Source: an uncultured Ignavibacteriales bacterium (GTDB taxonomy: Bacteria; Bacteroidota; Ignavibacteria; Ignavibacteriales; Ignavibacteriaceae). Taken from it: DNA of 64,000 bases. A program made the translations under genes and the position numbers. Positions within the stretch are counted from its first letter, which is position 1. Every line of letters starts with the position of its first letter. The stretch covers positions 1,749,926 through 1,813,925 of the forward strand of contig CAWIAG010000004.1 in the NCBI GenBank assembly GCA_963834015.1. Direction: 5' to 3'. The notes below the pieces were generated by a model. That model was not told the origin of the DNA and made no database searches. It worked only from the letters and a program-made list of their open reading frames with translations. Positions 5,209 through 63,165 of the stretch are shown piece by piece.

Positions 5209-5244
5209 GTGTAGAAGACGGGGCATGCCCTGTCTTTACGGGAG
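5209..5244. repeat. Module B, minimal form: GTAGAAGACGGGGCATGCCCTGTCTTTACGGGAG (20-bp imperfect palindrome AGACGGGGCA/TGCCCTGTCT)
   Basis: This is the shortest member of the B family. Other copies carry 20-40 bp inserted at the GCATGC centre. Confidence 0.65.
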
Positions 5245-15363: not shown

Positions 15364-15562
15364 AAATATCAGGATTTTATGTAATATAAACAATTGCGCA
15401 GGAATTATTATATAAGCCGCAATAAATTTTGTTATTCAATTTCGGCAGCTATGCGTATCTGTCTTTTATTCAAAGTATATTACTTTTAATCCTGTTTACG
15501 GAAGGTAAACTGATCCTCCGGAGGCGGACAAGTGAAAGAGTTAAGGGCAAATTTATTAGTAT

Positions 15563-15602
15563 CATTAACAACGCGATTAATCGTGGAGTTAATGATGAAG
15601 CA
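15563..15602. repeat. REP-like 40-bp palindromic element TCATTAACAACGCGATTAATCGTGGAGTTAATGATGAAGCAC
   Basis: Nested inverted repeats (TCATTAAC...GTTAATGA around CGATTAATCG). A near-identical copy lies at 41637-41678. Confidence 0.55.
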
Positions 15603-15830: not shown

Positions 15831-17243
15831 ATGGATAACCAAATGGATACAAGACGAGAATTTATTAAAAAAATCGGGTTGAGCACTGCGGCTATAGCAG
15901 TAGGCACATCTTTATTAGACGGCCAGCAAGCTAAGATAAATCCTAAGACAAAGCCTGTTGTAACGGACGCTATGCATTACAACCGTATTATCGGTGCGAA
16001 TGACCGCGTTCATGTTGGTGTTGTAGGTTTTTCACATCGTTTTGAAGACACTCTTAGTCTGGCATTCAAAGCAAATGCTAAAGATATGAATATGGAATTT
16101 ACCGCTGTCTCCGATATATGGAACCAAAGAAGAGATGCCGGTATTTATTATCTGAACGGATTAACGGGAAATAAAATTACCGGGTACAGAAACAATGAAG
16201 AATTATATGAGAAATCAAAGGTTGATGCTGTTATTATCAGTACGGCTGATTTTCAGCATGCTTATCATGCCACGGAAGCCGTAAGGGCAGGGCGCGATGC
16301 TTATGTAGAAAAACCTTTAGCGGAATCGATGGCGGATAATAAAATGGTGCTTAATGCGGTAAAGGAGACAAAGAAAATAGTTCAGATAGGTTCCCAGAGG
16401 CGGAGCGCAAAAAATTATCAGACTGCGGCGGAATATATTAAGTCAGGCAAATTCGGCTTTATAAAGTTTGTTGAAATGACATGGAATGTAAACCAGCCGG
16501 ACCGCTGGCGTTTACCAGATGTAGTGGCTAAGTTAAAAGAGAGCGATACAGACTGGCAAAGATTTTTAGTTAACAGGGAAAGAATACCGTTTAATCCCCG
16601 TATTTATTGCGAGTACCGTTTATTCTGGCCTTATTCTTCGGGTATACCGGGGCAATGGATGTGCCATCAGATAGATACGGTGCATTGGTTTACAGGATTT
16701 AAACATCCTTTGAGTGTTGTTGCGGGCGGAGGAATTTATATGTGGAACGACGGCAGGAAAAACGCCGATACATTAACGGCTATATTGGAGTACGGCCCTG
16801 CCAATGATAAAGACACAACAAAGAGATTTCAGGTTAATTATACTTCAAGGTTTTCAAATTCGGCGGGTGATGTAAAGGAAATATATTACTCCAATGGTGG
16901 AGAGTTAAACCTTGATACAAACAAAGTGACTCCACATGGCGGTTTAACTAAAGAGCATGCTGAAAAATACCCGCAGTTCGGGCTTCATGAAAACCTTCTG
17001 CCTGAATTTGAACTTGCGGATAATAAGATAAAAAGCGTTACGGATGCAAATGCAGGAGCAGACCTGATGACGATTGCACACATGAGGAACTGGATGGAAT
17101 GTATTAGAAGCCGTCAACAACCGCATGCGCCAATTGAAGCAGGGTATAATCATTCAGTTGCAAGCATGATGGTAACAGAATCGTTACACAGAGGCAGAAA
17201 AGTTATTTTTGACGAAGGTAAACAGGAAATTGTAAATGCATGA
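15831..17243 (+). CDS. TAT-exported Gfo/Idh/MocA family dehydrogenase (periplasmic glycoside/sugar 3-dehydrogenase-like)
   Basis: Twin-arginine signal MDTRREFIKKIGLSTAAIAVGTSLL; a Rossmann GVVGF segment; length 470 aa. Confidence 0.85.
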   Translation: MDNQMDTRREFIKKIGLSTAAIAVGTSLLDGQQAKINPKTKPVVTDAMHYNRIIGANDRVHVGVVGFSHRFEDTLSLAFKANAKDMNMEFTAVSDIWNQRRDAGIYYLNGLTGNKITGYRNNEELYEKSKVDAVIISTADFQHAYHATEAVRAGRDAYVEKPLAESMADNKMVLNAVKETKKIVQIGSQRRSAKNYQTAAEYIKSGKFGFIKFVEMTWNVNQPDRWRLPDVVAKLKESDTDWQRFLVNRERIPFNPRIYCEYRLFWPYSSGIPGQWMCHQIDTVHWFTGFKHPLSVVAGGGIYMWNDGRKNADTLTAILEYGPANDKDTTKRFQVNYTSRFSNSAGDVKEIYYSNGGELNLDTNKVTPHGGLTKEHAEKYPQFGLHENLLPEFELADNKIKSVTDANAGADLMTIAHMRNWMECIRSRQQPHAPIEAGYNHSVASMMVTESLHRGRKVIFDEGKQEIVNA

Positions 17244-17249
17244 GTTCTT

Positions 17250-17296
17250 ACGAGACGGGATCGCATAGGGATAAACTATGCCCTGTCTTGTAAAAG
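17250..17296. repeat. Module B-like copy ACGAGACGGGATCGCATAGGGATAAACTATGCCCTGTCTTGTAAAAGG
   Basis: Same AGACGGG...CCCTGTCTT arms with a central insert, located right after the dehydrogenase stop. Confidence 0.5.
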
Positions 17297-34142: not shown

Positions 34143-36389
34143 ATGATTACTGCAAACGATTTAGCTGTTTTACTCACGGAGATGACGCGTGTTTATAGGG
34201 AAAACACAAATAATAAATATATGCGCGAAGCTGCATTTCTGAAAGTTCAACAAAAGGCATTGTTCACTCCTATAGAAAAAGACGATTTATTTGTTGGGAG
34301 AACGAAGCAATTACCGATTGGATTTTTACCACAGTCCGATGAAGGGTCCCTTGGTTATTATATCCATCCCGTTGCAATTAAACAGCTTTTGGACGATCCC
34401 GTTCTGACTGCCGGGAACCAAGTAAAGCTTAAGGAAATTGAACAATTCTGGAATGAAAACTCCACAGTAACAAAAGCCAAATCGGCTTTCACCACGGATA
34501 TGATGAAAGCGCTGCCGAGCGACATGTATACCACAGAATCAGGTATAGCTTTTACATTATGGAGAATGAGCGGAGTTCAATTAGATTATGCAAAATTAGT
34601 CAGGCTTGGGATACCGGGTTTAAGGGATGAAATAAGAAAACGAAACTTAAACGCAGTCCCCGGTACGGAGCGATGGAATTTATACCAGTCAATGCTGAAG
34701 GCTCTTGATAACCTGGTTGAATTATGCCAAAGTTATTCGAACGAAGTACGCAGGTTATATAAAGACGAGACCGATACCGGCAGGAAAAAAGATTTAGCTG
34801 AGATGGAGCGCATCCTTCATAAATTACCTGAATCAAAGCCCGGGAGTTTCCGTGAGGGGATTCAATTAATTTATATTTATAATGCCGCGGACGGAGCCAG
34901 AAATTACGGCAGACTGGACAATGCACTGGCTGATTTATACTGCACGGATATTGAAAAAGAAATTATCGACAAGGAAGAAGCAATCCGGCTGCTTTCCGGT
35001 ATGTGGCGGCTTATTATAGACCGCGGCTACAGGTATGACAGCAGGATAATAATAGGAGGCAAAGGAAGGTTTAATGAAGAAAAAGCAAATGCCCTTGCCG
35101 TGACGATTATAGAAACTACACGCAGAGTAAAAGATATAGTGCCGCAATTGGCTTTGCGCTTCAATAAAAATCAAGACCCGGTTTTGTATAATATGGCACT
35201 GGATATTATAGGCGAAGGCAACCCTTACCCGATGCTGTATAACGACGATGTTAACATCCCGTCAGTTATGGAATCGTTTGACATCCCGGAAAATGAAGCC
35301 GAACATATTATCCAGTTCGGGTGCGGCGAATATGCGCTCGACCATAGAAGCGTAGGTACACCAAGCGGGGTGATAAATTTACTTCAGGCGCTGAACGTTA
35401 CAATTAATAATGGGATTGATCCCGTTACACAAAAACTAATGGGCATGCCGACAGAGCGGTATACAAAGTACGGCGAGTTTGAAACGTTTGATGACCTTCT
35501 AAAAGCTTATAAAGAACAGGTTGAATATCATGTGGATTTTCTTGCCAAACATGAAGAACTTGAATATTTGTATGCGGGAAAAGATGCAGCATACTTATAC
35601 TCAAGTATGCTGATGGATGACTGTATTGAAAGAGGAAAAGGAATTTATGAAGGAGGGATCAGGTACCTGGGAGGGACGCTTGAATCCTACGGCAACAGCA
35701 ATACGGCAGATGCTCTTACCGCAATAAAAAAATTAGTTTACGATGAAAAAATCCTTTCAATTTATGAATTAAAGAGCTGCCTTCAGGCAAATTTTTCCGG
35801 CTATGAGCGCATTCAGAAAAAAATGTTAAACTGCCCTAAGTACGGAAATGATAACGAAACGGCAGATAACATGTTGCTTGAAGTGCATAACCATTTATGC
35901 AATTATACATTAAAGCAAAAACACAGCACATCTCTTCATTCATATCTCGTGGTTGTTATAAATAACGATGCAAATACTATCATAGGCGAACATACATCAG
36001 CGTCGGCGGATGGGAGAAAAGCATTTGCTTATATGAACCCGGGCAATGCCCCTGTGGACGGGATGGACAAAAACGGAGTTACTGCATTCCTGAATTCTAT
36101 TGTTAAACCGGATACGCGGATACATGCAGGAGCAGTGCAAAATATGAAATTTTCAAAAGAAATGTTTTCAGAGTACCGGGATAAATTAGAAATTCTGCTG
36201 GCAACGTACTGGCAAAACGGCGCTGCCCAGGCAATGCTTACGGTTGTAGGGCGTAACGACCTTGAGGCTGCTATGGAACACCCGGAACTTTATCAAAACC
36301 TTTTGGTACGTGTGGGAGGCTTTAGCGAGAGATTTGTCAATTTACCACGGCACACTCAGCTTGAAATATTGAACAGAACTTTGTACTGA
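34143..36389 (+). CDS. Glycyl radical enzyme (PFL-family; eliminase-type GCxE active-site loop), substrate unknown
   Basis: 748 aa. C-terminal glycyl-radical motif VRVGGFSERFVNL about 30 aa from the end. Mid-protein Cys loop QFGCGEYALDH (Cys plus Glu at +2, as in the glycerol/propanediol dehydratase, CutC and HypD class). Adjacent dedicated activase. Confidence 0.75.
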   Translation: MITANDLAVLLTEMTRVYRENTNNKYMREAAFLKVQQKALFTPIEKDDLFVGRTKQLPIGFLPQSDEGSLGYYIHPVAIKQLLDDPVLTAGNQVKLKEIEQFWNENSTVTKAKSAFTTDMMKALPSDMYTTESGIAFTLWRMSGVQLDYAKLVRLGIPGLRDEIRKRNLNAVPGTERWNLYQSMLKALDNLVELCQSYSNEVRRLYKDETDTGRKKDLAEMERILHKLPESKPGSFREGIQLIYIYNAADGARNYGRLDNALADLYCTDIEKEIIDKEEAIRLLSGMWRLIIDRGYRYDSRIIIGGKGRFNEEKANALAVTIIETTRRVKDIVPQLALRFNKNQDPVLYNMALDIIGEGNPYPMLYNDDVNIPSVMESFDIPENEAEHIIQFGCGEYALDHRSVGTPSGVINLLQALNVTINNGIDPVTQKLMGMPTERYTKYGEFETFDDLLKAYKEQVEYHVDFLAKHEELEYLYAGKDAAYLYSSMLMDDCIERGKGIYEGGIRYLGGTLESYGNSNTADALTAIKKLVYDEKILSIYELKSCLQANFSGYERIQKKMLNCPKYGNDNETADNMLLEVHNHLCNYTLKQKHSTSLHSYLVVVINNDANTIIGEHTSASADGRKAFAYMNPGNAPVDGMDKNGVTAFLNSIVKPDTRIHAGAVQNMKFSKEMFSEYRDKLEILLATYWQNGAAQAMLTVVGRNDLEAAMEHPELYQNLLVRVGGFSERFVNLPRHTQLEILNRTLY

Positions 36390-38793: not shown

Positions 38794-38976
38794 TTACAAC
38801 CTTTTTGTCAACAGAAAGAGCTTTTGCCTGATAGCCAATTCTTTCACTATTTCACGCATCACTTCTCTATCGTATTCCCTAAAGAAATCAAGCTCACCAA
38901 ATAATTTTATTAATGTTTCATCTTCAAGATGCTTTAATGAAACATGTACTTTCAATATTTCTTTTTTCATAATCAA
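38794..38976 (-). CDS. Small ORF (60 aa) resembling the N-terminal part of a cNMP-binding (Crp-like) domain; possibly a gene fragment
   Basis: LFGELDFFREYDREVMREIV resembles the cNMP-binding opener. It lies 20 bp downstream of the hybrid kinase gene. Confidence 0.25.
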   Translation of the reverse strand: MIMKKEILKVHVSLKHLEDETLIKLFGELDFFREYDREVMREIVKELAIRQKLFLLTKRL

Positions 38977-38995: not shown

Positions 38996-41359
38996 TTAAT
39001 TCGTTTTAACCAATCCTTTTATCATATCAATTAATTCTTTTTTATAGAACGGTTTGGCTAGATAGCTTGTAAATCCCTGCTCCAGGAACATTCTTTTATG
39101 CTTCTCGGAAGCATAGCCGGTAATTGCGATTGAGGGAGTTTCCCGATAATTATCCAACTGCCTGATTTGTTTTAAGACTTCTATCCCGGACATGCCCTGG
39201 CCAAGGTTGATGTCTATAAGGAGCAGATCAAAGTTTGAATTTTTTGCACGATTAACCGCCTCTTCGCCGTTATTAACTGAAGATATCTCCCAGTATTTTT
39301 TTAAAAACATCTCTACTACCTCTACATTCAACAAGTTATCCTCAACAAGTAGTATTTTTAATTGTCTATTAAGGAGCGATTCCAGCGATGATAAATTGAT
39401 ACCCGTGCCAGTTACCGTAGTGGGCTTATTATTAAAAGGGATGTTACATTTATTAACAGGGATGAGTACTGAAAAATTCGATCCCTTGTGCCATTCACTT
39501 TCAACCAGGATTTTAATTCCCAATAATTGGGCCATCCTGTTGGCTAATGATAAGCCTAATCCCAATCCTTCAAATTCCCGGTGGAAGCCTTCGCTTACCT
39601 GCCTGAACTTCCGGAAGATAATCTCGTAATTTTCCTTTTTTATACCTATGCCCGTATCTTTCACATTAATTAATGTAAATTCATTTCCCTCATATCTAAT
39701 CTCATTATTTAATTCAACACGAACAATACCCGTTTTAGTATACTTAATTGCATTTTCAACCAGGTTGGAAATGATACCGTATAAAAGATATTCATCGCTT
39801 ATTATTTTAATCCCGTTTTGCGGGATGTCAAGTTCAAATTGCAGATTTTTTTCGGCTGCCCTCTGTTCATAAGATGATTTGAGAGTTGTGCAGAAAAAAT
39901 TCAAATCAATTTCTTTATAATTCGGTCTATAGTTTTTACTTTCAAGCTCCGTGGAGGCAAGTATTAAATTCAAAGTTTGCAAAAGGCGCTTCCCGGAGAG
40001 TGTAATTTTTTCAATTATTAAAGACAACTCAAGATTCTTTTCATTTTCCGATAGCAGTTGAGCAAAACCGAGAACTGCATTTAACGGTGTTCTTAGTTCG
40101 TGCGATATGTTGGCGATAAGCAGGGATTTTGTTTTATTCGCTTCTTCCGCCTCACCTTTAGATTCTATCAGTTCCGCCTCAATTTTTTTGCGGTTTGTTA
40201 TATCATCTTCCACAGAAAGGAAATGGGTAATTACACCTTCATCATTTCTAACCGGTGATACAGACACAGACACAGGGCAGTATTCTCCCGATTTCTTCTT
40301 GATCTCCAGTTCCCCTTTCCAGTTATTGCCTGCAAGGATAGTGTTACAAAGGTCTTTGTAAAGTTCTTCCGTTTGCCGGTCTGATTTAAATATCCGGGGA
40401 GACTGCCCTATCAATTCTTCTTTCTCAAAACCGGTCAACCCGGTCATTTGCTTGTTACTGTAAATGATCTGCCCGTTAATACCGGTTAAAAAAATACCCG
40501 ACGAAATTTGTTCAAGGGCAGTTGAAAGTAAACGGAGCTGTTCATTTGCGGATTTTGATTCGGAAATTTCATACTGGGTGTATTTTTCTTCCAATTCTTT
40601 TAACTTATTTTCTGCCGATTTTCTTAATTGAATTTCATCCTGTAAATTGTTGATCGTATGCTCGAAAAGAATATTTTTTTCCTTAACAAGCATACTGAGC
40701 TCATCGTTCACTCTTTCCATGTCATGTATTTTTTTCCTATGAAGAGAGACATTGCTGCATGTACCGTATAACCGGGTTATAAAGGGCATGTTTGACTCCC
40801 GCACCGGGAAAAACGAAAAATTATACCATGCAATATTTCTTGTGCCGTGCAGGAGCCTTATCTCCACAAATTTTCTTTCCCCGTTTATAGCCTCTGCCAG
40901 GGCCTCCTGAAAATAAGAATAATCGTCATAATGAAGAACGTTTCTGCTTAAATCAACATCCAGTAATGTTTCAAACGGGTACCCCATTTGATCTGAAAAA
41001 TTTTTATTTATCCATTCCAATTTCAAATTGTTTTTGCCGGAAACTATGATTGAAAAGATAAAATCGGTAAAAAGCCCTGTGATAAAATTTAAACGTTCCT
41101 GAACAGATGCATATTGTTCTATCCTGGTGTTTATTCCATTAATTTCATCTTTCAATTTTTTTATAATGGATTTTGCTTCAGTAATTTTTTCAGCTTGAGA
41201 ATTTATGATCAGTTCCTTTTCATTCTCTGAATTTTTGTTATTGCCTACTTCGGGATTTTTACCCGGGGCCAGGTTAATTCCGTTATTATTCACATTTTTT
41301 GAACTTTCATCTTTTGAACTCATATTCTCCCGCCTATTCTTTTGTAAATTTATTTTCAT
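38996..41359 (-). CDS. Cytoplasmic hybrid sensor histidine kinase / response regulator with PAS domains
   Basis: Low-complexity N-terminus, coiled coil, PAS-like segments, HisKA (NISHELRTPLNAV), HATPase_c (GTGIGI), and a C-terminal receiver (LKILLVEDN...DLLLIDINL). Confidence 0.85.
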   Translation of the reverse strand: MKINLQKNRRENMSSKDESSKNVNNNGINLAPGKNPEVGNNKNSENEKELIINSQAEKITEAKSIIKKLKDEINGINTRIEQYASVQERLNFITGLFTDFIFSIIVSGKNNLKLEWINKNFSDQMGYPFETLLDVDLSRNVLHYDDYSYFQEALAEAINGERKFVEIRLLHGTRNIAWYNFSFFPVRESNMPFITRLYGTCSNVSLHRKKIHDMERVNDELSMLVKEKNILFEHTINNLQDEIQLRKSAENKLKELEEKYTQYEISESKSANEQLRLLSTALEQISSGIFLTGINGQIIYSNKQMTGLTGFEKEELIGQSPRIFKSDRQTEELYKDLCNTILAGNNWKGELEIKKKSGEYCPVSVSVSPVRNDEGVITHFLSVEDDITNRKKIEAELIESKGEAEEANKTKSLLIANISHELRTPLNAVLGFAQLLSENEKNLELSLIIEKITLSGKRLLQTLNLILASTELESKNYRPNYKEIDLNFFCTTLKSSYEQRAAEKNLQFELDIPQNGIKIISDEYLLYGIISNLVENAIKYTKTGIVRVELNNEIRYEGNEFTLINVKDTGIGIKKENYEIIFRKFRQVSEGFHREFEGLGLGLSLANRMAQLLGIKILVESEWHKGSNFSVLIPVNKCNIPFNNKPTTVTGTGINLSSLESLLNRQLKILLVEDNLLNVEVVEMFLKKYWEISSVNNGEEAVNRAKNSNFDLLLIDINLGQGMSGIEVLKQIRQLDNYRETPSIAITGYASEKHKRMFLEQGFTSYLAKPFYKKELIDMIKGLVKTN

Positions 41360-41376
41360 TACTTCCTGTTACCGGA

Positions 41377-41410
41377 GGTATACCCCCGCCGCCGCCGGCG
41401 GGGGTATACC
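41377..41410. promoter_or_regulatory. Exceptionally GC-rich perfect hairpin GGTATACCCCCGCCG-ccgc-CGGCGGGGGTATACC in the 5' leader of the hybrid HK gene
   Basis: A 15-bp perfect stem read directly from the sequence, 18 bp upstream of the minus-strand start codon at 41359. Confidence 0.5.
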
Positions 41411-41578
41411 CTCTTTTGAATAATGCTGTTATGCAGAACTATTAACTTGCGGCCTTTTAATAAAAATTCATTTTTATTGAATTTTACCTGTTAAAAGTTC
41501 TGATTCAAAAATGGTAAATAGACTGAAGAGCGGGTATAACAGATTGTGTGATACTCTTGTAACAGAATTAAACGCGGC

Positions 41579-41597
41579 TGTCACAGATTATGTGACA
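41579..41597. promoter_or_regulatory. Palindromic operator-like site TGTCACA-GATTA-TGTGACA, with a half-site-like copy ACAGATTGTGTGA at 41539-41551
   Basis: Perfect 7-bp inverted arms about 220 bp upstream of the hybrid HK start, with a related direct copy 40 bp away. Confidence 0.35.
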
Positions 41598-41636
41598 AAG
41601 TTATAGGATTAGAGGGACGAAAGGGTTATAAAGAAA

Positions 41637-41678
41637 TCATTAACACCGCGATAAATTGCGGTGTTAATGATTAAGCAC
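41637..41678 (-). terminator. REP-like palindromic element acting as terminator of the PKD-protein operon: TCATTAACACCGCG-ataaatt-GCGGTGTTAATGA followed by TTTCTTT on the minus strand
   Basis: 14-bp stem. Near-identical to the element at 15563-15602, including the flank GTTAATGAT(T/G)AAGCAC. Confidence 0.55.
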
Positions 41679-41693
41679 AGGGGATAAGGGAAA

Positions 41694-44600
41694 TTATTCC
41701 CTGACTTTTACTGTTAAGTTAAATGATTTCTTAACCCTGCCGCAGACTGTACCGGTTTGGTCGTCAACAAGCAGTTCAACTTTATATATTCCTTCTTGTT
41801 TATATTTATGAAATACAATCGGCAAAGCAGATGATTCACCATCCCCAAATTTCCAGACTATCTTTAATAAATTCCCATCGGCATCGACCACGTTGGATGC
41901 ATCGAATTTAACTTCGTCATTTGCACTGTTTATATAAACAACAGAATCCTGCAATTCAGGAATCTGAGGCGGTTCAACTGCATAAACCAGTGTTGAATCA
42001 CTATAAAAAATATTATTCATTCCATCGCTCAAAACAAAATAGTAAATATATTTACCGCTTTTCTGAACAGAATGATTTAATATCCTGCTATCGGAGTTAA
42101 ATAAACCGTTTTTGCCGTTCCATTTAAATTTAAACTCGGCGTCTTTAAATTCCGTTCGAATTACCGGGTTTACGGTAAACATCTCCCCGGCACAAACATT
42201 GATAGATTTGGGAATAGAGCAATCCGGATAATTAATTACTTTCAGGTACTTTGTAGATTCACTAATGCTGTTTTGAGTATTTAATTTGTCTTTGACCACC
42301 AGCCTTATCTTATTTAAACCTGTGCGGCTGAAAATCGTTTTAAATTCAGCTTCATGTGAAACATCAACATCATTTACATACCATTCAAAATCAAGTTCAC
42401 CGCCGGAGTTGGAAGATTTGCTTCCATCCAGTTCAATCTGTTCATTTACAAATAAGTATTCAGGCAGTGAAAAATCAGCAACAGGCTCATCAAAAATATT
42501 TAAATAAATTGTATCCCTGTCGGTGTTATTCTCAACATTTGTATTATCGGTAACTGTTAAAATAACCCTGTACTTCCCTTTGAAAGAATAGGAATGCAAT
42601 ACGGAAATTCCTTTACCGGTAGAGCCGTCGCCGAAATCCCAAATATATTTGGATATACTACCGTCGGGGTCAAATGATTTTTTACCGTCAAATGAAACCG
42701 GTTGATAAACTGCAGCCGTTTGTACAGAACCTATTTTTGCAACCGGGGGAGCATTAACAGAAACCGGCTTTAAAAATAAAGCGGAACTGCATTCATTTTT
42801 AGAATCCGTTTGAATTCTAAGAGTTACGGTAAAATTGCCGGACTTTGAATAGGTGTGGTTTACAACTTTTCCTTTTGTGTAAGAACTATCACCAAAATCC
42901 CAGTTATAATCTGTAATGTTTCCCACACTAGTTGAACTGGAAGATGCATCAAATACCTGCAAAGAATTCTGAGGAATGGAATCGCATGAAGCAAACGAAG
43001 CATAAGGAGCGTCCACAACCGTAACGGTTATCTTATCTAAAGATGTATTATCGCAGCTTCCTTTTTCATTTCCCGTAATCGTGAGCGTAACTTTATATTT
43101 GCCCGTCTTATAGTATGTGTGAACAGGCCTTGCCCCGGCGCCGGTTTCGCCATCGCCGAAATCCCAATCATAGCTTGCAATGGTTCCTCCGGCAGCGGTG
43201 GATTTAGAACCGTCAAATTTAATTTGTGAATTGGCACAAATAATAGTATCGCTGCCCGCGTTTGCAATAGGCGCTTCGTTAACATTCAAAAGTTTTGTAG
43301 TAATAGCCGAACTGCAGGCTAAACCGGAATTATCGGTTACTGTTAAAATAACTTTATGCGCCCCGCCTTTTTTGAATACTTTAAATACACTGCTTCCTGA
43401 TAAATGGGAAGAATCATCAAACGACCATAAATAATCCAGTTGAGTATTGTCGAAAGACCTGGATTTTAAACCGTTCAATATTACTATATCGCCGGCACAA
43501 ACTGTAGTATCAGCTCCTGCATCAGCAACAGGAGGGCGGTGAATTTTTACTGTAATGTTTTTCTTTACGGAAGAATTAGACAAGTTAAGCCCGTCGTTTA
43601 CCGTTAATGTAACCGGAAAAACACCGTAGTCCTTAAAATTATGAGTAATAATTCCGCTTCCCAGAACTTCCTTTTGATCCGGGAAAGTCCAGGAGTAGCT
43701 CAACTGGTCGCCGTCCGGATCGTATGAACCCGAGGCATCAAAAGTAATTATTTTATTGCACGATTCAATATATTCCTGTGTCTTTATAACAGGCGGCGTG
43801 TTGATCTTTATGTATATTGTGTCCGGGACATTAGAATTGGCAACACCGGCATTGTCGGTAACAGTTAAAACTGCGCAGTACAAACCCGATTTATTGAATG
43901 ACCTTTCTACTACTTTTCCTGTTTTCATCAAGCCGTCGCTGAATACCCATGAATAGAATTTTATAGTACCATCGACATCGTATGATTTGGAGGCATCAAA
44001 CCTTAACTTTTGATTCGGGACGGCGATGGCAGTATATTCAATTTTAGGAACCGGCGGCGAGTTGACTATTACTTTTGCATAATCCACACTTGATAAAGGC
44101 TTAACAAAATCATCTGTAACTTCAAGCCCTACTGTATAAGTTCCGGGTTCTTTGAATGCATATTCAAACCGTCTGCCTTCCGAAATGAATTTATTATCTA
44201 CAAACCACCTGCTTTTGAGGGCTCTTCCATCGGGATCAACGGAGCGCGAGCTGCTGAAGCTAACCGTTTGTCCCGGGGCAACCACCTGGTCCGGGCCTAT
44301 ATCCGCAACCGGCCTTCTATCTATTATTACTTTTGAAGTATCAAAAGCAGAATTATTCTTTGCTTCGGTATTATCATATACCTGCAGTGTAACAGTGTAA
44401 GCACCGGCTGTTCTGTAAGTATGCGAAACTGTTTTCCCTTCATCAGTATAGCCGTCTCCAAAATCCCAGATATATCTTGTAATAGTGCCGTCTACATCGT
44501 AAGATTTTGAACCGTCAAAAACTGCATAACCGTTGTTCAGGTACTGATCATTTACAATTTTTGCAACAGGCTGCGCATTAACCGTGATTTCAACAGAGTC

Positions 44601-46472
44601 AATATTAGTATCGGTAACGGTTTCCGAATTATCCCTGACTTTTAATGAGACTATATATTTACCGTATTTAGGATAACTGTGGTAAACTTTTATGCCGCTG
44701 GCTATGGTTCCATCCCCAAAATTCCATTCGAAGTTATTAATTTTATAGCCCTCTGTTGTAGATTTTGAACCGTCAAACAATAGATTTTCATCAGTTGCCA
44801 CAACCCTGTTGGAACCAAGATTGGGAACAGGCTGGTTATGAATTACAACGTTTACGAATGCCGACGAAGTATTATTTGATGCATCGGTATTATCTTTAAC
44901 TGTTAATTTTACCTTGTAACTTCCGGTTTCAGAGAAGCTTTGTGTAACAATTTTTCCTTCTTTTTTACCGAGGGTTCCGAAATCCCAAATATACTGCACA
45001 ATATTTCCATCAGGGTCAAAGCTGGGCGAAGCATCAAAAGTTAACGGTTGACCAGGGGGAGCAGTAAGCCTTTCTTTTGTCTTTGCGACAGGCTGCATAT
45101 TAATGAATATTGAAATGCCGGTTGTATCAAGATTACAAACCTGTTTGGAAGTTTCTTCAACCGTTAGAACAACTGAATACCTGCCCGGATTTTTATAAGT
45201 ATGTAATACTTTAATTCCGCTGCCTGTCTCACCGTCTCCAAAAGACCAGGTATACTTTGTAAGATTGGGATTGTTTACAACTGATTTACTTCCGTCGAAT
45301 TGGACCTTCTCATTAAGCGCCCTGACCAAATCGGTGCCGGCATCAGCTTTTGGTTTAGGCAATATATTAACTTCGTAAGGTTCCAGTTTTGCGCGGGTGA
45401 TAGCATTTGACTGTTCTTCCACCAAAACTTCTTCGTTATATTTTCCCGGGCCGGGAAATTCCTGCCAACATATATCACCATTGCATTTTGCAGCCGGCCC
45501 GTCAGGCCAGTTAAAAATTAAACCATAATTTTCAGGTGAATTTGTGCCCGAAAAATCGAGTTCGGCGCTAAAGCAGCCGGTTTGTTTTATTTGCTTTACT
45601 ATGTTGGGTATAGTTGCCGGTACTTTATTATAGTAAGGCAGTTGAATGGGAAGTTTTTTCCCCTGCTTGTCTGTGAAATAAAAAGTTATATCATTTATAC
45701 TGTGCATTTCAGGGCCGAAATCGAGAGCACATAAATTACCCCTTTCATATTTACTCAAAGGAACTTTTATGCTTGACCAATTTTGGGGATCATTTTCAGT
45801 CAATGGAATTCCATCCCGGAGCAGAGTACTCAGGGCGATATTAGTGCCGTCAAAATCAAAGGTATGAATATTTATTTCGTCATCATTCTTGCCGGGCATG
45901 GTTATAAAAGAAACCTTCATTGGATTTTTCGCCAGTTGAATTGTCGGCTCATAAGAATAAAACTTTACATTATTTATTGTCCTGTTCTGGGATGGTTCGG
46001 AACTGATAAACAATTCAAATACGTTGCCGTCATGGCCTTCGATGCCCTGGGAAACCAGAGTATATACAGACCCGGAATCATTGGGGACACCTGCAAGCAA
46101 TGCCCAGCGTTCAAGATATTTTTTATCATTGCCTACTTCAATTTGTTTAATCAAACTGCTTTGTATTCTTGCCTTAAAATCACCGGGGCTTAACAAGCTG
46201 TCTTCCGGAATTTCACCTTTGTAAAGAGAGAACCGGAACTTAGAATCCCAATTTCCAATTCGTTCATCTAAAGAAGAGCCGCATGCAGCATCAAAAATCC
46301 TGACATAGGCCATACCTTTATAGCCGGCCGGCAGTTTAAAATGAATGGCCTGAATATAGTTGTCATCGCCTTCACCCGGGCTAGCCTGGGGGCCGAAATT
46401 TATAAATCTTAACCTTGTTTGAGCGTTTACAATAAGAGGCAGTAATAACAATAGTAAAAGTAATTTTTTCAT
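41694..46472 (-). CDS. Giant secreted multi-PKD-domain surface protein (1592 aa)
   Basis: Signal peptide MKKLLLLLLLLPLIVNAQ, an N-terminal ~350-aa unknown domain, then about 12 PKD repeats (recurrent W.FGDG...H.Y...G.Y.V.L.V.D). No T9SS CTD. Confidence 0.85.
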   Translation of the reverse strand: MKKLLLLLLLLPLIVNAQTRLRFINFGPQASPGEGDDNYIQAIHFKLPAGYKGMAYVRIFDAACGSSLDERIGNWDSKFRFSLYKGEIPEDSLLSPGDFKARIQSSLIKQIEVGNDKKYLERWALLAGVPNDSGSVYTLVSQGIEGHDGNVFELFISSEPSQNRTINNVKFYSYEPTIQLAKNPMKVSFITMPGKNDDEINIHTFDFDGTNIALSTLLRDGIPLTENDPQNWSSIKVPLSKYERGNLCALDFGPEMHSINDITFYFTDKQGKKLPIQLPYYNKVPATIPNIVKQIKQTGCFSAELDFSGTNSPENYGLIFNWPDGPAAKCNGDICWQEFPGPGKYNEEVLVEEQSNAITRAKLEPYEVNILPKPKADAGTDLVRALNEKVQFDGSKSVVNNPNLTKYTWSFGDGETGSGIKVLHTYKNPGRYSVVLTVEETSKQVCNLDTTGISIFINMQPVAKTKERLTAPPGQPLTFDASPSFDPDGNIVQYIWDFGTLGKKEGKIVTQSFSETGSYKVKLTVKDNTDASNNTSSAFVNVVIHNQPVPNLGSNRVVATDENLLFDGSKSTTEGYKINNFEWNFGDGTIASGIKVYHSYPKYGKYIVSLKVRDNSETVTDTNIDSVEITVNAQPVAKIVNDQYLNNGYAVFDGSKSYDVDGTITRYIWDFGDGYTDEGKTVSHTYRTAGAYTVTLQVYDNTEAKNNSAFDTSKVIIDRRPVADIGPDQVVAPGQTVSFSSSRSVDPDGRALKSRWFVDNKFISEGRRFEYAFKEPGTYTVGLEVTDDFVKPLSSVDYAKVIVNSPPVPKIEYTAIAVPNQKLRFDASKSYDVDGTIKFYSWVFSDGLMKTGKVVERSFNKSGLYCAVLTVTDNAGVANSNVPDTIYIKINTPPVIKTQEYIESCNKIITFDASGSYDPDGDQLSYSWTFPDQKEVLGSGIITHNFKDYGVFPVTLTVNDGLNLSNSSVKKNITVKIHRPPVADAGADTTVCAGDIVILNGLKSRSFDNTQLDYLWSFDDSSHLSGSSVFKVFKKGGAHKVILTVTDNSGLACSSAITTKLLNVNEAPIANAGSDTIICANSQIKFDGSKSTAAGGTIASYDWDFGDGETGAGARPVHTYYKTGKYKVTLTITGNEKGSCDNTSLDKITVTVVDAPYASFASCDSIPQNSLQVFDASSSSTSVGNITDYNWDFGDSSYTKGKVVNHTYSKSGNFTVTLRIQTDSKNECSSALFLKPVSVNAPPVAKIGSVQTAAVYQPVSFDGKKSFDPDGSISKYIWDFGDGSTGKGISVLHSYSFKGKYRVILTVTDNTNVENNTDRDTIYLNIFDEPVADFSLPEYLFVNEQIELDGSKSSNSGGELDFEWYVNDVDVSHEAEFKTIFSRTGLNKIRLVVKDKLNTQNSISESTKYLKVINYPDCSIPKSINVCAGEMFTVNPVIRTEFKDAEFKFKWNGKNGLFNSDSRILNHSVQKSGKYIYYFVLSDGMNNIFYSDSTLVYAVEPPQIPELQDSVVYINSANDEVKFDASNVVDADGNLLKIVWKFGDGESSALPIVFHKYKQEGIYKVELLVDDQTGTVCGRVKKSFNLTVKVRE

Positions 46473-46482
46473 CTTTGTGTCC

Positions 46483-48801
46483 CTAATTTTTATTTAGCAA
46501 CAAGTAAGTTTTTTTGTTATTTAATTTATCTTCAAGTGTAACCGATTTAATCCGGGGCTTAATGTTATCTGCGCACATAAATGTCAGCTCATAAAGCCCG
46601 GCAGCGGAATTATAAGGCAGAATTTCGGTAAGCCTACTGCCATTTAAACTTAGTTCAACTTCAGCCGATTTACTTAGGCCTGTTTCATCATCAGCCTTAA
46701 CGCTAATTTGATAAAGATTATCGCCTATAATTTTTATATCCGATGATATTAACTTAGGAGGCTGGTCATCGCAAATGATTTTCTTTTCCAATGATTTAAT
46801 ATTTCCGTCTTTATTAACCGCCTCAATTGTAAAGGTGTTGTTAAAGCCGGTTAAATCCTGGGGGGAGTTGAATTCATTTTTTTCATTTAACGGAATTTTA
46901 ACTCCATTAATAAATAATTCTTCAGCACCTAAAACTTTGCCGCTAATGTTTATCTTTTTGTGATTAACAAAAGAAGGTACCGAAGGGTCAAGGATAATTT
47001 CAATGTTTTCGCTTTTCTTCAATACATTAAATGTTGAACTTTTTTCGAACCCGGCGGGTGTGATAACATTAATTAAAAATATTTCACCCAAATTATAAAA
47101 TGGAATTGAAAAATCACATTTGCCCAGAGAATCCGAGTAAGCAGTATATAACGATTGAGAATTTAATGATTCAACCCGAACGCGGGACAGGGGCCGTGTT
47201 GATAAATTAAGATTTAAAATATTTTTGGATGTATAATATGTTGAACTGCGGGTCAAGTCGCCGAAAACCGAATCCGATATTTTAATTTCGGGATCGGACT
47301 CAACAATAACTTTTCTATATATAGTGGTTGCATTACCGATTGGATTTTTTGACTCAATTTCAATTGTATTTTTACCTTCATTTAAAACTAAATCATATTC
47401 AAAACTGCCGTCAGTGCCTGTTACAACTTTATTATGGTTGACTAAAACCTTGCACCCGGAATTGGTTTTGCCTGTTATCTTCAGGCCTGTACTCCGCGAA
47501 ATAAAATTATCTGCGGGAAAATAAATATTTAAAAACGGTTTTGCCGTATCATGTAATATTATAACCGACCTGATCTCCGAAAATGGCCCGGGCAAACCCA
47601 GGCTGTCCACCGAACAAACATGCCAGTAATAAACGCCGGGCTTCAGCCCTGAAATTTCCAGCGAGCTGCCGGTATTTTTGTTGTATGATTTATCCACTAT
47701 TTTAAATGTTCCCGTGGTTGAAATTTCCATCGAATAATCAGGTACACCCGGGGCATTCTGCCAGTTAAATTTTACATTATTCCCTGTAACAGAAGAAAAA
47801 TCTTCCGGGTAGATTAATTCCGGCGGGGGGATTAATTTCCTTGGCTTTGACGGGTAACCGCCGTTAGGAATAACAGAACCCTGGTTTTTCTTTACGATAA
47901 CCGACGAATCCTTTACGCCGAGTGTAATTTCGCCGTTGTAATTTGCCAGCTTTGCATTTGCATTATTTTTTTCGATCCAAAAATATTTAGAGTTGATTTT
48001 TGTCCTTACGCCGGGAATATCAAGGTCGAATTTTTTCTTAGGGCTGTTCAAAAGCATTGCATAAGCATTACCTTTTTCAAGTTTAATTTTTGTATCGGTA
48101 TTATTCCCTATAACATCAACGCGGGATATTTGTATCTCTGCCTCCGAATTTTCATAAAGCTTGATCTGGCTTAGGTCATTAAAAGTAATATTAGCTAATG
48201 ATAAAGATAAAGTTCTTGCCCAGTCATTCTCTTTCAGGTTGTCGTATAGTTGGGCATTCTCCCAGTTTAAAACCGAAGGGAACATTTTTTGGACCGTGCC
48301 TTTTTTATACGAAATTACGGCATCCAAAGTTTTTTCTCTTATTTCCATTGTCTGGTTGTATGCTTTTTTTGCAAGTTTCACGGCTTCTATCAGATAATCA
48401 TGGGATGCATCAAAATCCAGGGAATTTTTAGCTTTTAATGCGTCATAATAATTACCTGATGATTTTTCCAAAAGATCGGGAGAGAGAATTTTAGCGCCTG
48501 CTTTAACTGCATCCTGTATGCTCCTGGAAGCATCATCAAACAATTCCAATAAATCTTTTACTTTCTTTTGTGGAATTGTTACCTCAACAGGTGATTGAAC
48601 GCTGCTTAGATCTTTGATGTTATTATATTTCAGTATATAAGTCCAAAGATCAGGATCGCTGAAATAATCCCGGGCTAACTTTCGCACGTCGGTCTGGTTG
48701 GTAATTGTAACCCGGATATTATCTTTTGTCTGAGCATTCAGGCTGAAGTATTGAAGCAGCATAAATGACAAAGCGGCGAATAAAATAATTTTACGAAACA
48801 T
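46483..48801 (-). CDS. Secreted multidomain protein: LysM-like N-terminus, FecR-like segment, FN3 and Ig-like domains
   Basis: Signal peptide. IRVTITNQTDVRKLARDYFSDPDLWTYILKYNNIKDLSSVQSPVEVTIP is LysM-like. KYFWIEKNNANAKLANYNGEITLGV is FecR-like. The FN3 motif YYWHVCSVDSLGLPGPFS is shared with the T9SS proteases. 10-bp spacing to the PKD gene. Confidence 0.65.
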   Translation of the reverse strand: MFRKIILFAALSFMLLQYFSLNAQTKDNIRVTITNQTDVRKLARDYFSDPDLWTYILKYNNIKDLSSVQSPVEVTIPQKKVKDLLELFDDASRSIQDAVKAGAKILSPDLLEKSSGNYYDALKAKNSLDFDASHDYLIEAVKLAKKAYNQTMEIREKTLDAVISYKKGTVQKMFPSVLNWENAQLYDNLKENDWARTLSLSLANITFNDLSQIKLYENSEAEIQISRVDVIGNNTDTKIKLEKGNAYAMLLNSPKKKFDLDIPGVRTKINSKYFWIEKNNANAKLANYNGEITLGVKDSSVIVKKNQGSVIPNGGYPSKPRKLIPPPELIYPEDFSSVTGNNVKFNWQNAPGVPDYSMEISTTGTFKIVDKSYNKNTGSSLEISGLKPGVYYWHVCSVDSLGLPGPFSEIRSVIILHDTAKPFLNIYFPADNFISRSTGLKITGKTNSGCKVLVNHNKVVTGTDGSFEYDLVLNEGKNTIEIESKNPIGNATTIYRKVIVESDPEIKISDSVFGDLTRSSTYYTSKNILNLNLSTRPLSRVRVESLNSQSLYTAYSDSLGKCDFSIPFYNLGEIFLINVITPAGFEKSSTFNVLKKSENIEIILDPSVPSFVNHKKINISGKVLGAEELFINGVKIPLNEKNEFNSPQDLTGFNNTFTIEAVNKDGNIKSLEKKIICDDQPPKLISSDIKIIGDNLYQISVKADDETGLSKSAEVELSLNGSRLTEILPYNSAAGLYELTFMCADNIKPRIKSVTLEDKLNNKKTYLLLNKN

Positions 48802-48803
48802 TT

Positions 48804-50741
48804 TTAAACCTCATTGAATACCGGTAGTGAAATAATAAATTCCGCACCATTACCTTTTTCACTCTTAAGCATTATCTCTCCATGCATTAACTCAACAAGT
48901 TTTTTTACAATTGATAATCCCAACCCTGTTGAAAAATCCCCGCCTACAGGCTGTGCTGAGAGCCGGGCAAACTTTTGGAATACTTTTGTTTTATCTTCTT
49001 CTGTAAAGCCGGGCCCCTCGTCTTTTATTCGTGTTTCAACCATCCTGCAATCTTCTGATAAGCCGATAGATATAAAAATATTTTTATTAACCGACGAAAA
49101 TTTTATTGCATTGGATAAAACGTTTTGAATTACCTGAAAAGTTAAATTGTTATCAGCAAAAACATCTTTCACATCATTATTATAGTTATCAATTATTGCC
49201 AGATTTTTTTGTGAAATATTTTCCAGGTTTTGTTTTTTAAGTTCCGTAATAAGAGGGATTAAAGAAACTTTTTCCGGTTTAATATTTATTTTACCCTGTT
49301 CAATCGTGTTAATATCCAGCAAATCTTTAATAATCAAAGACATCCGGTTCGAGGTTTTAATTATAGCGCTTAAAAATTCATTCTGCTGTTCCCCTGAAAT
49401 ATCTTCATCATGTTTTAACGTATCGGCAAAGGAACTTATGGCAAACAAAGGATTTTTTAAATCATGTGCGGCGATAGCTAAGAATTCATCCTTTTCTTCG
49501 TTTAACTCCAAAACCCTTTTATATGCTTTTTTTAATTCTAAATTTGATTCTTTCAACTCATTCGTCCTGTCTTCAACTTTTTTCTCTAAGTTTTTATTAT
49601 ACTCTTCCAATTGTTCTTTTTGATCTGCAATCTCCGCGAAATTCCTTTTCAACTGTTTACTCATCTTTGAAAGCGATTCATTTAATAATCCTATTGAATC
49701 CTTAGCTTTATAATCCACGCTTACATCAAAATTTCCGCTGCTAATGAGTGTGGACGCTTTCGCCATATTTATAATAGGGCGGCTGAGATGCTTTGAGAAA
49801 AGTATGGCAACAATAACAGACAGTATTACACTGATCCCTGCAAAAAATAAGAAAAAGAGAAGAGCCTGGTTAACAACCGCATAGGCAGAACTTTTGCTGA
49901 TAATTGAAACAACAACCCAGTTAACAGCTTCCGCCGGTGAGAAAGAGGAAACAAAATTACCAAGCTGCGGATCCGAATAATTATTTACCAAAGCAACTTT
50001 GTTTTTATTATTTACTAATGATTGTGCATCTGCTATTATTTGATCAGGCAGTTGCAATAAAAAATTATTAGTTAAAAATTTCTTGCCTGTAGCATCAGTT
50101 ACAAACAAGGTTCCGATCCTGTTTAATAAATGGTTTTCAAGATCGGAAACTATATCACGGAGGTCTAGCTGGCAGACCAAATATGACGATGAGGATTTAT
50201 TCAATTTAACGCCGGTAACTTCCCAGCAAATCCATGTTTCCAGAGCTTTATTATATACGGGAGTTGAGATAAAAGGAAGCTTGCGGTTTTTAATATCAAA
50301 AATACCGGGGTCAATTTTTTCCTGTGAACTGTCTACGGGAATAATTTCCCTGCCGCCTTTTTTAAGAAAATCCTTTCCTGTAAAAAATGCCTGGTTATAA
50401 CTACCGTTGTTATCCATAAAAAGCGAAATTGAAATAATATTATCTATTTTTCTTATATTTGAGATCATAAATTCTATTTTTTCGTTGGCAGAGATATCAG
50501 GATTCTCAATGGTACTTTTAATTAAGTCCTGAATTTCAAGAGATTTATTTATTTTAGAATTTATGCTTGAAGAAATTGCGTTGGATGAGAAAATTAATTT
50601 TTCATTTATATTACCTCTCAATTCATTTAAAATGAGGGAAGTAATACTGTAACTAATTAATAAGCCCGGCAGTATAGCCATCAATAGCATTAATATTCCC
50701 AGCTTTATCTGCCAGGGTATCCCATTTAATCGAATTGTCAC
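48804..50741 (-). CDS. Membrane sensor histidine kinase (extracytoplasmic sensing domain, HAMP/coiled coil, HisKA, HATPase_c)
   Basis: Two TM segments flank a ~270-aa periplasmic domain. IAAHDLKNPLFAI is the H-box. C-terminal G-boxes GLGLSIVK. 2-bp gap to the downstream gene. Confidence 0.85.
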   Translation of the reverse strand: MTIRLNGIPWQIKLGILMLLMAILPGLLISYSITSLILNELRGNINEKLIFSSNAISSSINSKINKSLEIQDLIKSTIENPDISANEKIEFMISNIRKIDNIISISLFMDNNGSYNQAFFTGKDFLKKGGREIIPVDSSQEKIDPGIFDIKNRKLPFISTPVYNKALETWICWEVTGVKLNKSSSSYLVCQLDLRDIVSDLENHLLNRIGTLFVTDATGKKFLTNNFLLQLPDQIIADAQSLVNNKNKVALVNNYSDPQLGNFVSSFSPAEAVNWVVVSIISKSSAYAVVNQALLFFLFFAGISVILSVIVAILFSKHLSRPIINMAKASTLISSGNFDVSVDYKAKDSIGLLNESLSKMSKQLKRNFAEIADQKEQLEEYNKNLEKKVEDRTNELKESNLELKKAYKRVLELNEEKDEFLAIAAHDLKNPLFAISSFADTLKHDEDISGEQQNEFLSAIIKTSNRMSLIIKDLLDINTIEQGKINIKPEKVSLIPLITELKKQNLENISQKNLAIIDNYNNDVKDVFADNNLTFQVIQNVLSNAIKFSSVNKNIFISIGLSEDCRMVETRIKDEGPGFTEEDKTKVFQKFARLSAQPVGGDFSTGLGLSIVKKLVELMHGEIMLKSEKGNGAEFIISLPVFNEV

Positions 50742-50790
50742 TTTAAGTTTCTATAAAGTTGTAGATTCGATTTAAATATAACTTTTTTTT

Positions 50791-51438
50791 ATGATAAAAA
50801 TAATTGTTGTAGACGACCATCCGATGCTTCGCGCCGGGCTGGTTCAAACTATCAGCCGGGAGCCCGATCTTAAGGTCCTTGATGAATGCGGTAACGGGGA
50901 GGAACTGATCTCAAAAATAACCGGAAACGAGTATGACGTTGTAGTGCTGGACATTGACTTACCAGGGCGAAACGGGATTGAAATATTAAAAGAAGTAAAA
51001 AAGATAAATCCAAAGCTTTCCGTCCTAATTTTGAGCTCATTTCCTGAAGAAAGATATGGTGTGCGCGCCATCAAGGCAGGTGCAAATGCTTATCTTACAA
51101 AGGGGGACGATACAAAAATAATAGTTGAAACAATAAGAGGAATTAAAGGCAATAAAAGAAAAATATCACCTAAACTGGCTGAAATTCTTGCAAATGAATT
51201 AAATGACATATCGGATAAACTACCTCACGAACGATTATCGGACAGGGAACTTGAAGTGATGAGGCATATTGCGCTGGGGAAGTCTACAAGTGAAATCGCC
51301 GTTTTGCTCTCACTCAGTGTGAATACGGTAAACACATACCGTGCAAGGATATTAGAAAAGATGTGCTTTAGTTCAAATACGCAGATAGCTATTTATGCTT
51401 TGGAGAATGGGCTTCTTGACAAAGCTTCACGAAGCTGA
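50791..51438 (+). CDS. NarL/FixJ-family response regulator (REC + LuxR-type HTH)
   Basis: IIVVDDHPMLRAGL...VVVLDIDLPGRNG receiver, then RELEVMRHIALGKSTSEIAVLLSLSVNTVNTYRARILEKM LuxR HTH. Divergent from the HK operon. Confidence 0.85.
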   Translation: MIKIIVVDDHPMLRAGLVQTISREPDLKVLDECGNGEELISKITGNEYDVVVLDIDLPGRNGIEILKEVKKINPKLSVLILSSFPEERYGVRAIKAGANAYLTKGDDTKIIVETIRGIKGNKRKISPKLAEILANELNDISDKLPHERLSDRELEVMRHIALGKSTSEIAVLLSLSVNTVNTYRARILEKMCFSSNTQIAIYALENGLLDKASRS

Positions 51439-57404: not shown

Positions 57405-57459
57405 CGACAAATGTCGCCTCAGAAACAGTTAAATTTAGAAAGAACAACTGAGGTGACAA

Positions 57460-59105: not shown

Positions 59106-59175
59106 AAAAATACCAGGCGACAAATGTCGTAATAGTAAATAACCAATTATGTGAGGCCATTTTATATGTTTAAAG

Positions 59176-59212
59176 TTGGAGAGTTGGGGCATGCCCCGGC
59201 TTTACAACACTA
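59176..59212. repeat. Module B-like copy GAGAGTTGGGGCATGCCCCGGCTTTACAACAC
   Basis: GGGGCATGCCCC palindromic core with ...CTTTAC... arm, as in the other B copies. Confidence 0.4.
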
Positions 59213-63053: not shown

Positions 63054-63133
63054 TGCTCGTCCACTTGAGCCTTACTCCAGAGGTGAGCCTCACGTATAGT
63101 AACTAAAATTAAACGGTAATTTAATTATTTTAT

Positions 63134-63165
63134 CCGGAACGGATCACACGTTCCGGATTTTTATT
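63134..63165 (+). terminator. Rho-independent terminator after the second protease gene
   Basis: CCGGAACG-gatcaca-CGTTCCGG followed by ATTTTTATTAT. Confidence 0.7.

Follow-up and report, generated by a model that had tools for sequence, protein, structure and literature searches.

What function a long and perfectly paired stem-loop might serve upstream of a hybrid histidine kinase gene was the question raised by positions 41377-41410 of the window, i.e., the whole 64-kb stretch of DNA that was analysed. A leader structure, a protein-binding palindrome, a terminator and a dispersed repeat would each leave different traces in the sequence, in its neighbourhood and in related genomes, and the locus was examined for each of them. 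The coordinates of the features and the records of the related lineages are collected in Table 1.

Table 1. Features of the kinase locus in the window (lineage A) and corresponding loci of related lineages
Feature	Position or record	Strand	Remarks
Pyruvate formate-lyase family protein	34143-36389		identical to MGA7723263.1
58-aa ORF, MKKEILKVHVSLKHLEDETLIKLFGELDFFREYDREVMREIVKELAIRQKLFLLTKRL	38794-38970	minus	directly downstream of the kinase
Hybrid histidine kinase (PAS, HisKA, HATPase_c, receiver)	38996-41323	minus	775 aa
Shine-Dalgarno sequence GGGAG	41327-41331	minus	3 nt 5′ of the start codon (41323-41321); read from the sequence
GC-rich stem-loop	41377-41410	minus	15 perfect pairs, 4-nt loop
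Conserved leader motif GCATAACAGCAT	41423-41434	minus	12 nt upstream of the hairpin
Predicted sigma-70-type promoter	41481-41508	minus	-35 TTGAAT (41508-41503), 16-nt spacer, -10 TAAAAT (41486-41481)
Second, degenerate palindrome TATCACACAATCTGTTATA (gene orientation)	41535-41553		centre at about -70 from the predicted start
Block AATTCTGTTACAA between the two palindromes	41557-41569	minus	nearly invariant in six lineages
Perfect 19-bp palindrome TGTCACA-N5-TGTGACA	41579-41597		putative dimeric regulator site; centre at about -114 from the predicted start
AT-rich 15-bp hairpin with T-rich tail	41635-41672	minus	22 nt beyond the stop codon of the PKD-repeat gene; conserved in B and C
PKD-repeat protein	41694-46472	minus	1592 aa; upstream of the kinase
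Signalling cluster	46483-51438	minus (HAMP histidine kinase and FecR-like protein)	HAMP histidine kinase and FecR-like/glucodextranase-B-domain protein
LuxR/GerE-type response regulator	50791-51438	divergent	
Hairpin of lineage A	window		GGTATACCCCCGCCG-GCGG-CGGCGGGGGTATACC; -35 kcal/mol
Lineage B	L025		kinase 90% identical to the window; hairpin GGCACACCCCCGCC-TGCGGC-GGCGGGGGTATACC, -30 kcal/mol
Lineage C	L003		kinase 88% identical to the window; hairpin GGCACACTCCCGCCGGCGGCGGTGTACC, -17 kcal/mol
Lineage D	L004-6		kinase 67% identical to the window; hairpin GGGGTAAACCCCTGCTG-AAAT-CAGCAGGGGTTTACGCC, -33 kcal/mol
Lineage E	L007-9 / L028		kinase 63% identical to the window
Lineage F	L031		kinase about 51% identical, over an aligned 72% of the query

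Sequence and fold of the hairpin

The hairpin was found exactly as the initial annotation had described it, with a stem of 15 perfect pairs, 11 of which were G-C. The plus strand contained GGTATACCCCCGCCG (41377-41391) followed by the loop CCGC (41392-41395) and CGGCGGGGGTATACC (41396-41410), which corresponds to GGUAUACCCCCGCCG-GCGG-CGGCGGGGGUAUACC in the orientation of the kinase gene, and the G+C content around it was about 37%. When the window was simulated 40 times with a first-order Markov model, the longest perfect stem contained 9-12 pairs and never 13 or more. A survey of the 64-kb window for stems of 9 or more pairs, allowing one mismatch and requiring 7 or more G-C pairs, returned this hairpin alone. 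Together with short flanks it was found to reach -35 kcal/mol, the strongest energy in the window, the hairpins at gene ends being at -24 kcal/mol or weaker. The 141-nt region containing it folded at -47.1 kcal/mol as against -30.0 +/- 3.5 kcal/mol for shuffled sequences (z = -4.9), and the local fold was dominated by the hairpin, the sense and antisense folds of which were equally stable. The 34-nt hairpin is real and far above chance expectation.

Related lineages

Lineages carrying the locus were collected by a protein search with look-ups and by a metagenome scan with a promoter-block pattern, the window being taken as lineage A. The window belongs to an Ignavibacteriaceae metagenome-assembled genome (ERR11523660 / ERZ25039535), and lineages B, C and E occur in the peat metagenome 3300017988. 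Five further lineages (B-F), Ignavibacteriaceae-like in character, were found, and the gene order common to the lineages was the PKD gene, the intergenic region, the kinase and a small ORF of about 60 aa. The 22-base promoter-block pattern returned from the metagenome scan the known lineages only, along with three chance matches. The record P0009 was left out of the leader comparison as it contained no upstream DNA.

The Logan contig L010 was found to be a mosaic, its first ~330 nt (the leader and the first codons) being identical to lineage B (L025) and the other ~2.5 kb identical to the window, and it was therefore left out as an independent lineage. The mosaic reflects either recombination of co-occurring strains at the 5′ end of the kinase or a chimeric assembly. 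A second assembly of the same organism as the window (L002; ENA contig_5848) contained the PKD gene (41694-46472) in three ORFs and was one G short in the G-run of the hairpin (41400-41404); these differences look like homopolymer or indel assembly errors.

Start codon and ribosome-binding site of the kinase

The true start of the kinase was most likely the ATG at 41323 and not the one at 41359. The 775-aa product starting at 41323 was on record in public gene calls, and the 787-aa version starting at 41359 was absent from them. The equivalents of the Shine-Dalgarno sequence were GGAGG in lineage B and GGAGA in lineage C, and the upstream ATG of lineage B was found to reach a stop after six codons. 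With the start at 41323 the hairpin lies 54-87 nt upstream of the start codon and the ribosome-binding site is not covered by it. The interval of 18-50 nt given by the initial annotation holds for the first in-frame ATG at 41359 but not for this likely start. The same annotation had proposed an effect on access of the ribosome to its binding site, which did not survive, as the hairpin stops short of the likely start codon and leaves out the Shine-Dalgarno sequence; the latter (41331-41327) and the AUG were located 46-54 nt outside the stem.

Two pairings that might sequester the Shine-Dalgarno sequence were rejected as coincidence. One of them, through the 5′ arm (GGCGGGAG resembling the 3′ arm), was partly conserved in lineages B and C and not in D, and the other, through ACCUCC beside the stem, was not conserved in D. 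Small upstream ORFs (a leader ORF of 4-9 aa and the one beginning at ATG 41359) were also rejected, since they contained no Shine-Dalgarno sequence and conserved neither frame nor length.

Conservation of the hairpin

In lineages A-D a strong hairpin was found directly after the shared motif ACATAACAGCAT. The motif GCATAACAGCAT was the sole leader sequence outside the hairpin common to these four lineages, the remaining leader being largely unalignable between A-C and D. The arms of the hairpin were 11-17 bp long, and the loops were unrelated, i.e., GCGG in A, UGCGGC in B, CCGG in C and AAAU in D. At three positions of the stem both partners were found to differ between A and D with pairing retained (U-A to A-U once, and C-G to U-A twice). 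In the covariation set, which comprised four independent sequences and drew all three double changes from lineage D, 90.7% of the cells were paired as against 43-63% with slid partners, and the observed values were reached by 8 of 500 shuffles. RNAalifold over the leader gave the hairpin as the only consensus structure, and the minimum free energy folds of the full untranslated region differed between lineages; a larger conserved leader fold was thus rejected.

Three substitutions separated the hairpins of A and B; they were confined to one arm, and each of them restored pairing in A. The B hairpin contained two C.A mismatches on the sense strand, which are G.U wobbles on the antisense strand. 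Templated quasipalindrome correction could yield such seemingly compensatory changes without selection. No hairpin was found in the leaders of lineages E and F, and it must therefore be dispensable. Lineage E was found to keep a remnant of the motif upstream of the hairpin, and D and E are sisters (70% identical), which makes loss in E the simplest history.

Promoter block and upstream palindromes

A block of about 130 nt upstream of the hairpin was conserved in all six lineages, and the sequence around the block was unalignable. The palindrome TGTCACA-GATTA-TGTGACA, which had been noticed before, was found there letter for letter. Of the six lineages, only D departed from the arm sequences, by one substitution, and the spacer was variable, being TAATC, TATAC or CAAAA across the lineages. 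Conserved arms around a free spacer are the signature of a dimeric DNA-binding protein, and this conservation supports the palindrome as a putative regulator-binding site. A direct half-copy had also been reported at 41539-41551; a second copy does exist, but it is a degenerate full copy (41535-41553) that matches at 16 of 19 positions and lies 44 bp downstream of the first site, with the core CA..TCTG..ATA conserved in six lineages. Besides these two upstream of the kinase, no further palindrome sites were found in the window. In lineage D, a TGTCACA half-site was found to overlap the start codon of the kinase (GGCTTGTCACATGAAT; L004 2993-3003), possibly by coincidence.

The perfect palindrome resembles CRP and FNR sites in being two-fold symmetric, in containing TGTGA/TCACA pentamers and in lying upstream of the promoter at activator-like distances, and the initial annotation had drawn that comparison while remarking on the inverted arm order. 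The arms were indeed found to be everted (TCACA-N5-TGTGA) with a spacer of 5 nt instead of the 6 nt of CRP or the 4 nt of FNR, so that the arrangement departs from the CRP layout TGTGA-N6-TCACA and the comparison had to be given up. No Crp/Fnr-family gene was identified nearby, the closest regulator gene being that of the LuxR/GerE-type response regulator, which is a candidate binder of TGTCACA-N5-TGTGACA. The positions of the palindromes (about -114 and -70) are typical of an activator.

The predicted promoter TTGAAT-16-TAAAAT scored 9/12 against the sigma-70 consensus. Matches of this kind were no commoner than in shuffled sequences (35 found, 38 expected), and it is consequently conservation that carries the promoter call. 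The equivalent hexamers were TTGAAA/TAAAAT in B, TTGGGA/TAGAAT in C, TTGATA/TAATAT in D and TTCATT/TAAAAT in E, with a spacer of 16-17 nt throughout lineages A-E, whereas in F the hexamers were unclear and no -10 was evident. In lineage E, which contains no hairpin, the conserved block was the sole candidate promoter of the kinase. Transcription is predicted from these hexamers to start near 41474, which would give a leader of 151 nt with the hairpin at +65 to +98, the predicted start being about 64 nt upstream of it. A Bacteroidetes-type -7 motif (TAnnTTTG) was rejected, since it was not enriched upstream of genes in the window; TCATTTTTG as a -7 box would still put the start upstream of the hairpin. 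The literature on promoters and transcription start sites of Ignavibacteria was searched and nothing relevant was found.

Neighbouring genes

The signalling cluster upstream of the PKD gene was conserved in lineage E. The 58-aa ORF downstream of the kinase was found at the same position in lineages B-E with 75-97% identity and without a Pfam match, and it probably represents a genuine partner gene, as yet uncharacterised.

Search for further copies and for known RNA families

The initial annotation had pointed to a second GGTATACC at about 28061 and had proposed a search for further copies of the stem. The second occurrence was present, along with another at 16641, both being isolated 8-mers and neither lying in a hairpin. 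The GGTATACC search and the hairpin survey found no second copy of the hairpin in the 64-kb window, so that the part of the proposed search that covered the window gave one copy. The species genomes gave unrelated matches only. The pattern GGTATACCCCC-N(4-24)-GGGGGTATACC was scanned against 185,579 of them (one genome per species, the source genome not being among them), and 13 matches were found, all of them unrelated hairpins of unrelated taxa (Yersinia, Lentzea, Oscillospiraceae and others). This is roughly the yield of randomly sampled terminator-like stems.

The hairpin resembles REP and BIME elements in being an intergenic, GC-rich, imperfect-to-perfect palindrome of 30-40 nt. Those elements occur as many dispersed copies of the same sequence, whereas the hairpin was single in 64 kb and positionally orthologous across the lineages. 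A REP or mobile palindrome was rejected on the single copy in the 64-kb window and on the lack of a related family in the species-genome scan. A known RNA family was likewise rejected. Rfam 15 gave no match in the whole window at gathering thresholds, and a permissive search of 41250-41750 gave only sub-threshold matches of at most 26.5 bits as against thresholds of 42-100, none of them meaningful. A search for plasmid and phage similarity gave no relevant match.

Terminators and gene-end hairpins

On the sense strand the hairpin was followed by UCCGGUAAC in A, UCCGAUAAC in B, UCUAAUAAC in C and UAAAAACCG in D, none of which contains a U-tract; the remark of the initial annotation that there is no T-tract in the gene's orientation is thus confirmed for the minus strand. 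The tail of A on the plus strand was CTCTTTTGAA, and an antisense TTTT was found in A and D only. The hairpin lies 284 nt past the stop codon of the PKD gene, downstream of the promoter block and beyond that gene's own T-rich-tailed hairpin (41635-41672). The latter is likely the terminator of the PKD gene, so that the GC-rich hairpin is not needed for this purpose.

A copy of the T-rich-tailed hairpin (ATCATTAACACCGCGAT..ATTGCGGTGTTAATGAT) with about 86% identity was found at 15561-15596, about 200 nt downstream of a gene ending at 15363, where none is expected by chance; the two may belong to a small family of palindromic terminator-like elements. Two further intergenic palindromes, at 5215-5236 and 59175-59208, contained the common core GGGGCATGCCCC. 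GC-rich hairpins with CCGCCGGCGG-like cores and without T-tracts were found after the PKD stop in lineages E (L007 2325-2356) and D (L004 2397-2434). The one in E (CTCCTGCCGGCGGCGGGGGGTTAACCTCT) is similar to the A-C leader hairpin down to an ACCTCT flank, either through shared origin or through low-complexity coincidence.

Several of the strongest gene-end hairpins of the window were found without a T-tract (17248-17293, 57412-57458, 59175-59208 and others, the genes of the three ending at 17243, 57404 and 59105), and a canonical hairpin followed by TTTTT was found at 63132-63158. Termination or 3′-end formation in this genome may often do without a U-tract, and the missing U-tract of the leader hairpin is therefore compatible with termination.

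Alternative explanations

The hairpin might accordingly act on the sense strand as an attenuator or terminator that needs no U-tract, where transcripts from the promoter or read-through from the PKD gene would stop unless a factor permits passage, and the kinase would be kept low. This is unlikely, although the hairpin exceeds all gene-end hairpins in strength (-35 against -24 kcal/mol or weaker), T-tracts are likewise missing from hairpins at other gene ends (17243, 57404 and 59105) and from those directly after the PKD stop in D and E, and the 190 nt between hairpin and AUG in lineage D would leave room for a second promoter. The corresponding distance in A-C is only 54 nt, which is scant space for another promoter. 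The lack of a U-tract was common to four of four lineages, this genome does possess a canonical hairpin with a T-tract, RNAalifold found no conserved antiterminator pairing next to the hairpin, and the kinase of E and F is predicted to be expressed from the same block without any hairpin.

The dispensability of the hairpin in E and F would also fit a neutral or nearly neutral palindrome, the relic of an inserted element or of a local duplication; templated repair within the strand (quasipalindrome correction), and not function, would then keep it perfect. The three A/B substitutions in one arm are as expected from a single template-switch event, the hairpin of lineage C was found to be shortened symmetrically by 6 nt, and the intergenic region of lineage E contained a similar GC-rich hairpin, CCGGCGGCGGGGGGTTAACC, at another place. 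Such a relic is distinctly unlikely, as the hairpin has kept the same position down to 67% kinase identity while the flanking leader diverged beyond alignment, and neither another copy in 64 kb nor a related family in the genome collection was found.

The 34-bp palindrome might instead function as DNA, as a cruciform or as an operator or roadblock downstream of the promoter that is bound by a dimeric protein. Its perfect two-fold symmetry in a regulatory region agrees with this, and strand-neutral conservation fits a role in DNA as well as one in RNA. The arm sequences, however, covary rather than stay fixed and vary in length (11-17 bp), in contrast to the upstream palindrome with its conserved arms and free spacer, and GC-only cores are atypical of helix-turn-helix operators. 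The protein-binding palindrome offered as an alternative by the initial annotation is weakened by this covariation, and a DNA-level site is quite improbable.

An intrinsic terminator on the plus strand, by which antisense or stray transcripts leaving the kinase gene would be ended, is highly improbable: the site was the best terminator-like one on that strand in the scan (tail CTCTTTTGAA), lineage D also contained TTTTG after the stem, and the B hairpin was stronger on the plus strand (-34.7 kcal/mol with its G.U wobbles, against -29.9 on the sense strand), but B and C contained CCCCCTCTGAA and CTCCCTCTGAA there without a T-tract, no plus-strand gene or conserved antisense unit was found upstream, and conservation of the N-terminal region of the kinase, which lies opposite, is poor even in the comparison of A with B.

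A proposed structural element in the leader of the kinase mRNA

An even chance of being right is given to the reading that the kinase mRNA has a 5′ untranslated leader of ~150 nt in which the hairpin acts in cis as a structural RNA element, probably affecting the stability or processing of the message. Conservation concerned the helix alone and extended neither to the loop nor to much of the stem sequence, no U-tract followed the helix and the ribosome-binding site was left untouched, which together point to the helix as the functional feature. The initial annotation had held a leader structure to be likelier than a terminator, and this view is upheld by the conserved promoter block upstream, by the same leader position in four lineages and by the compensatory changes. 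We infer the start site, the functional strand and the mechanism of stability or processing.

Transcription would begin near 41474 from the sigma-70-like promoter, with a dimeric regulator bound to TGTCACA-N5-TGTGACA and probably also to its degenerate copy. At +65 to +98 the nascent leader would then form the stem-loop (about -35 kcal/mol), and the Shine-Dalgarno sequence GGGAG and the AUG, 54 nt beyond it, would stay unpaired. Most likely the helix would determine how long the message lasts, either as a physical obstacle or by directing its processing; it could, e.g., block 5′-end-dependent or 5′-to-3′ decay or serve as a site of double-strand-specific cleavage.

A more elaborate version, in which the hairpin would lie at the centre of a regulated leader specific to the clade, i.e., a U-tract-independent attenuator or a processing switch, with read-through or cleavage under the control of a component of the neighbouring signalling cluster, is very doubtful. 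The controller in that case could be the LuxR-type response regulator, the HAMP kinase, the FecR-like protein, the PKD-repeat protein or the 58-aa protein, and, if this were true, Ignavibacteriota would possess a hybrid histidine kinase under post-initiation control.

To our knowledge, gene regulation in Ignavibacteriota is essentially unstudied, and we know of no RNA-level regulation described in this group. The structural leader element, if confirmed, would be among the first cis-acting leader RNA structures with an operator and promoter architecture for Ignavibacteriota. The locus also provides a testable promoter model, in which TGTCACA-N5-TGTGACA is centred at about -114 and its degenerate copy at about -70, upstream of the -35/-10 hexamers. 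A stable hairpin in the 5′ untranslated region of one sensor-kinase gene, dispensable in sister lineages, opens no long-standing question.

Comparison with known systems

Structures that sequester the ribosome-binding site, such as thermometers and the platforms of translational riboswitches, pair with the Shine-Dalgarno sequence and/or the start codon, and the hairpin does not. It shares with intrinsic terminators and attenuators a GC-rich stem, a short loop, a typical size and a location between two co-directional genes. It differs from both in that no lineage contained a U-tract on the gene strand and only two of the four contained one on the other strand, in that the upstream gene possesses a terminator hairpin of its own, and in that no alternative antiterminator pairing was found.

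Stem-loops that stabilise mRNAs from the 5′ untranslated region include the leader hairpin of Escherichia coli ompA and those of Bacillus subtilis aprE and of the ermC type, and in the classical cases the helix lies no more than a few nucleotides from the 5′ end. The hairpin resembles these in being a stable helix in an untranslated leader that leaves the ribosome-binding site free and in which the helix is conserved and not the loop. It differs from them in its unusual length and GC-richness and in the predicted start about 64 nt upstream, and a processing step must therefore be assumed for it to act as the classical 5′-end stabilisers do. The hairpin is thus a clade-restricted example of a familiar kind, a stable 5′-leader stem-loop with an operator and a promoter upstream, and as such is not surprising.
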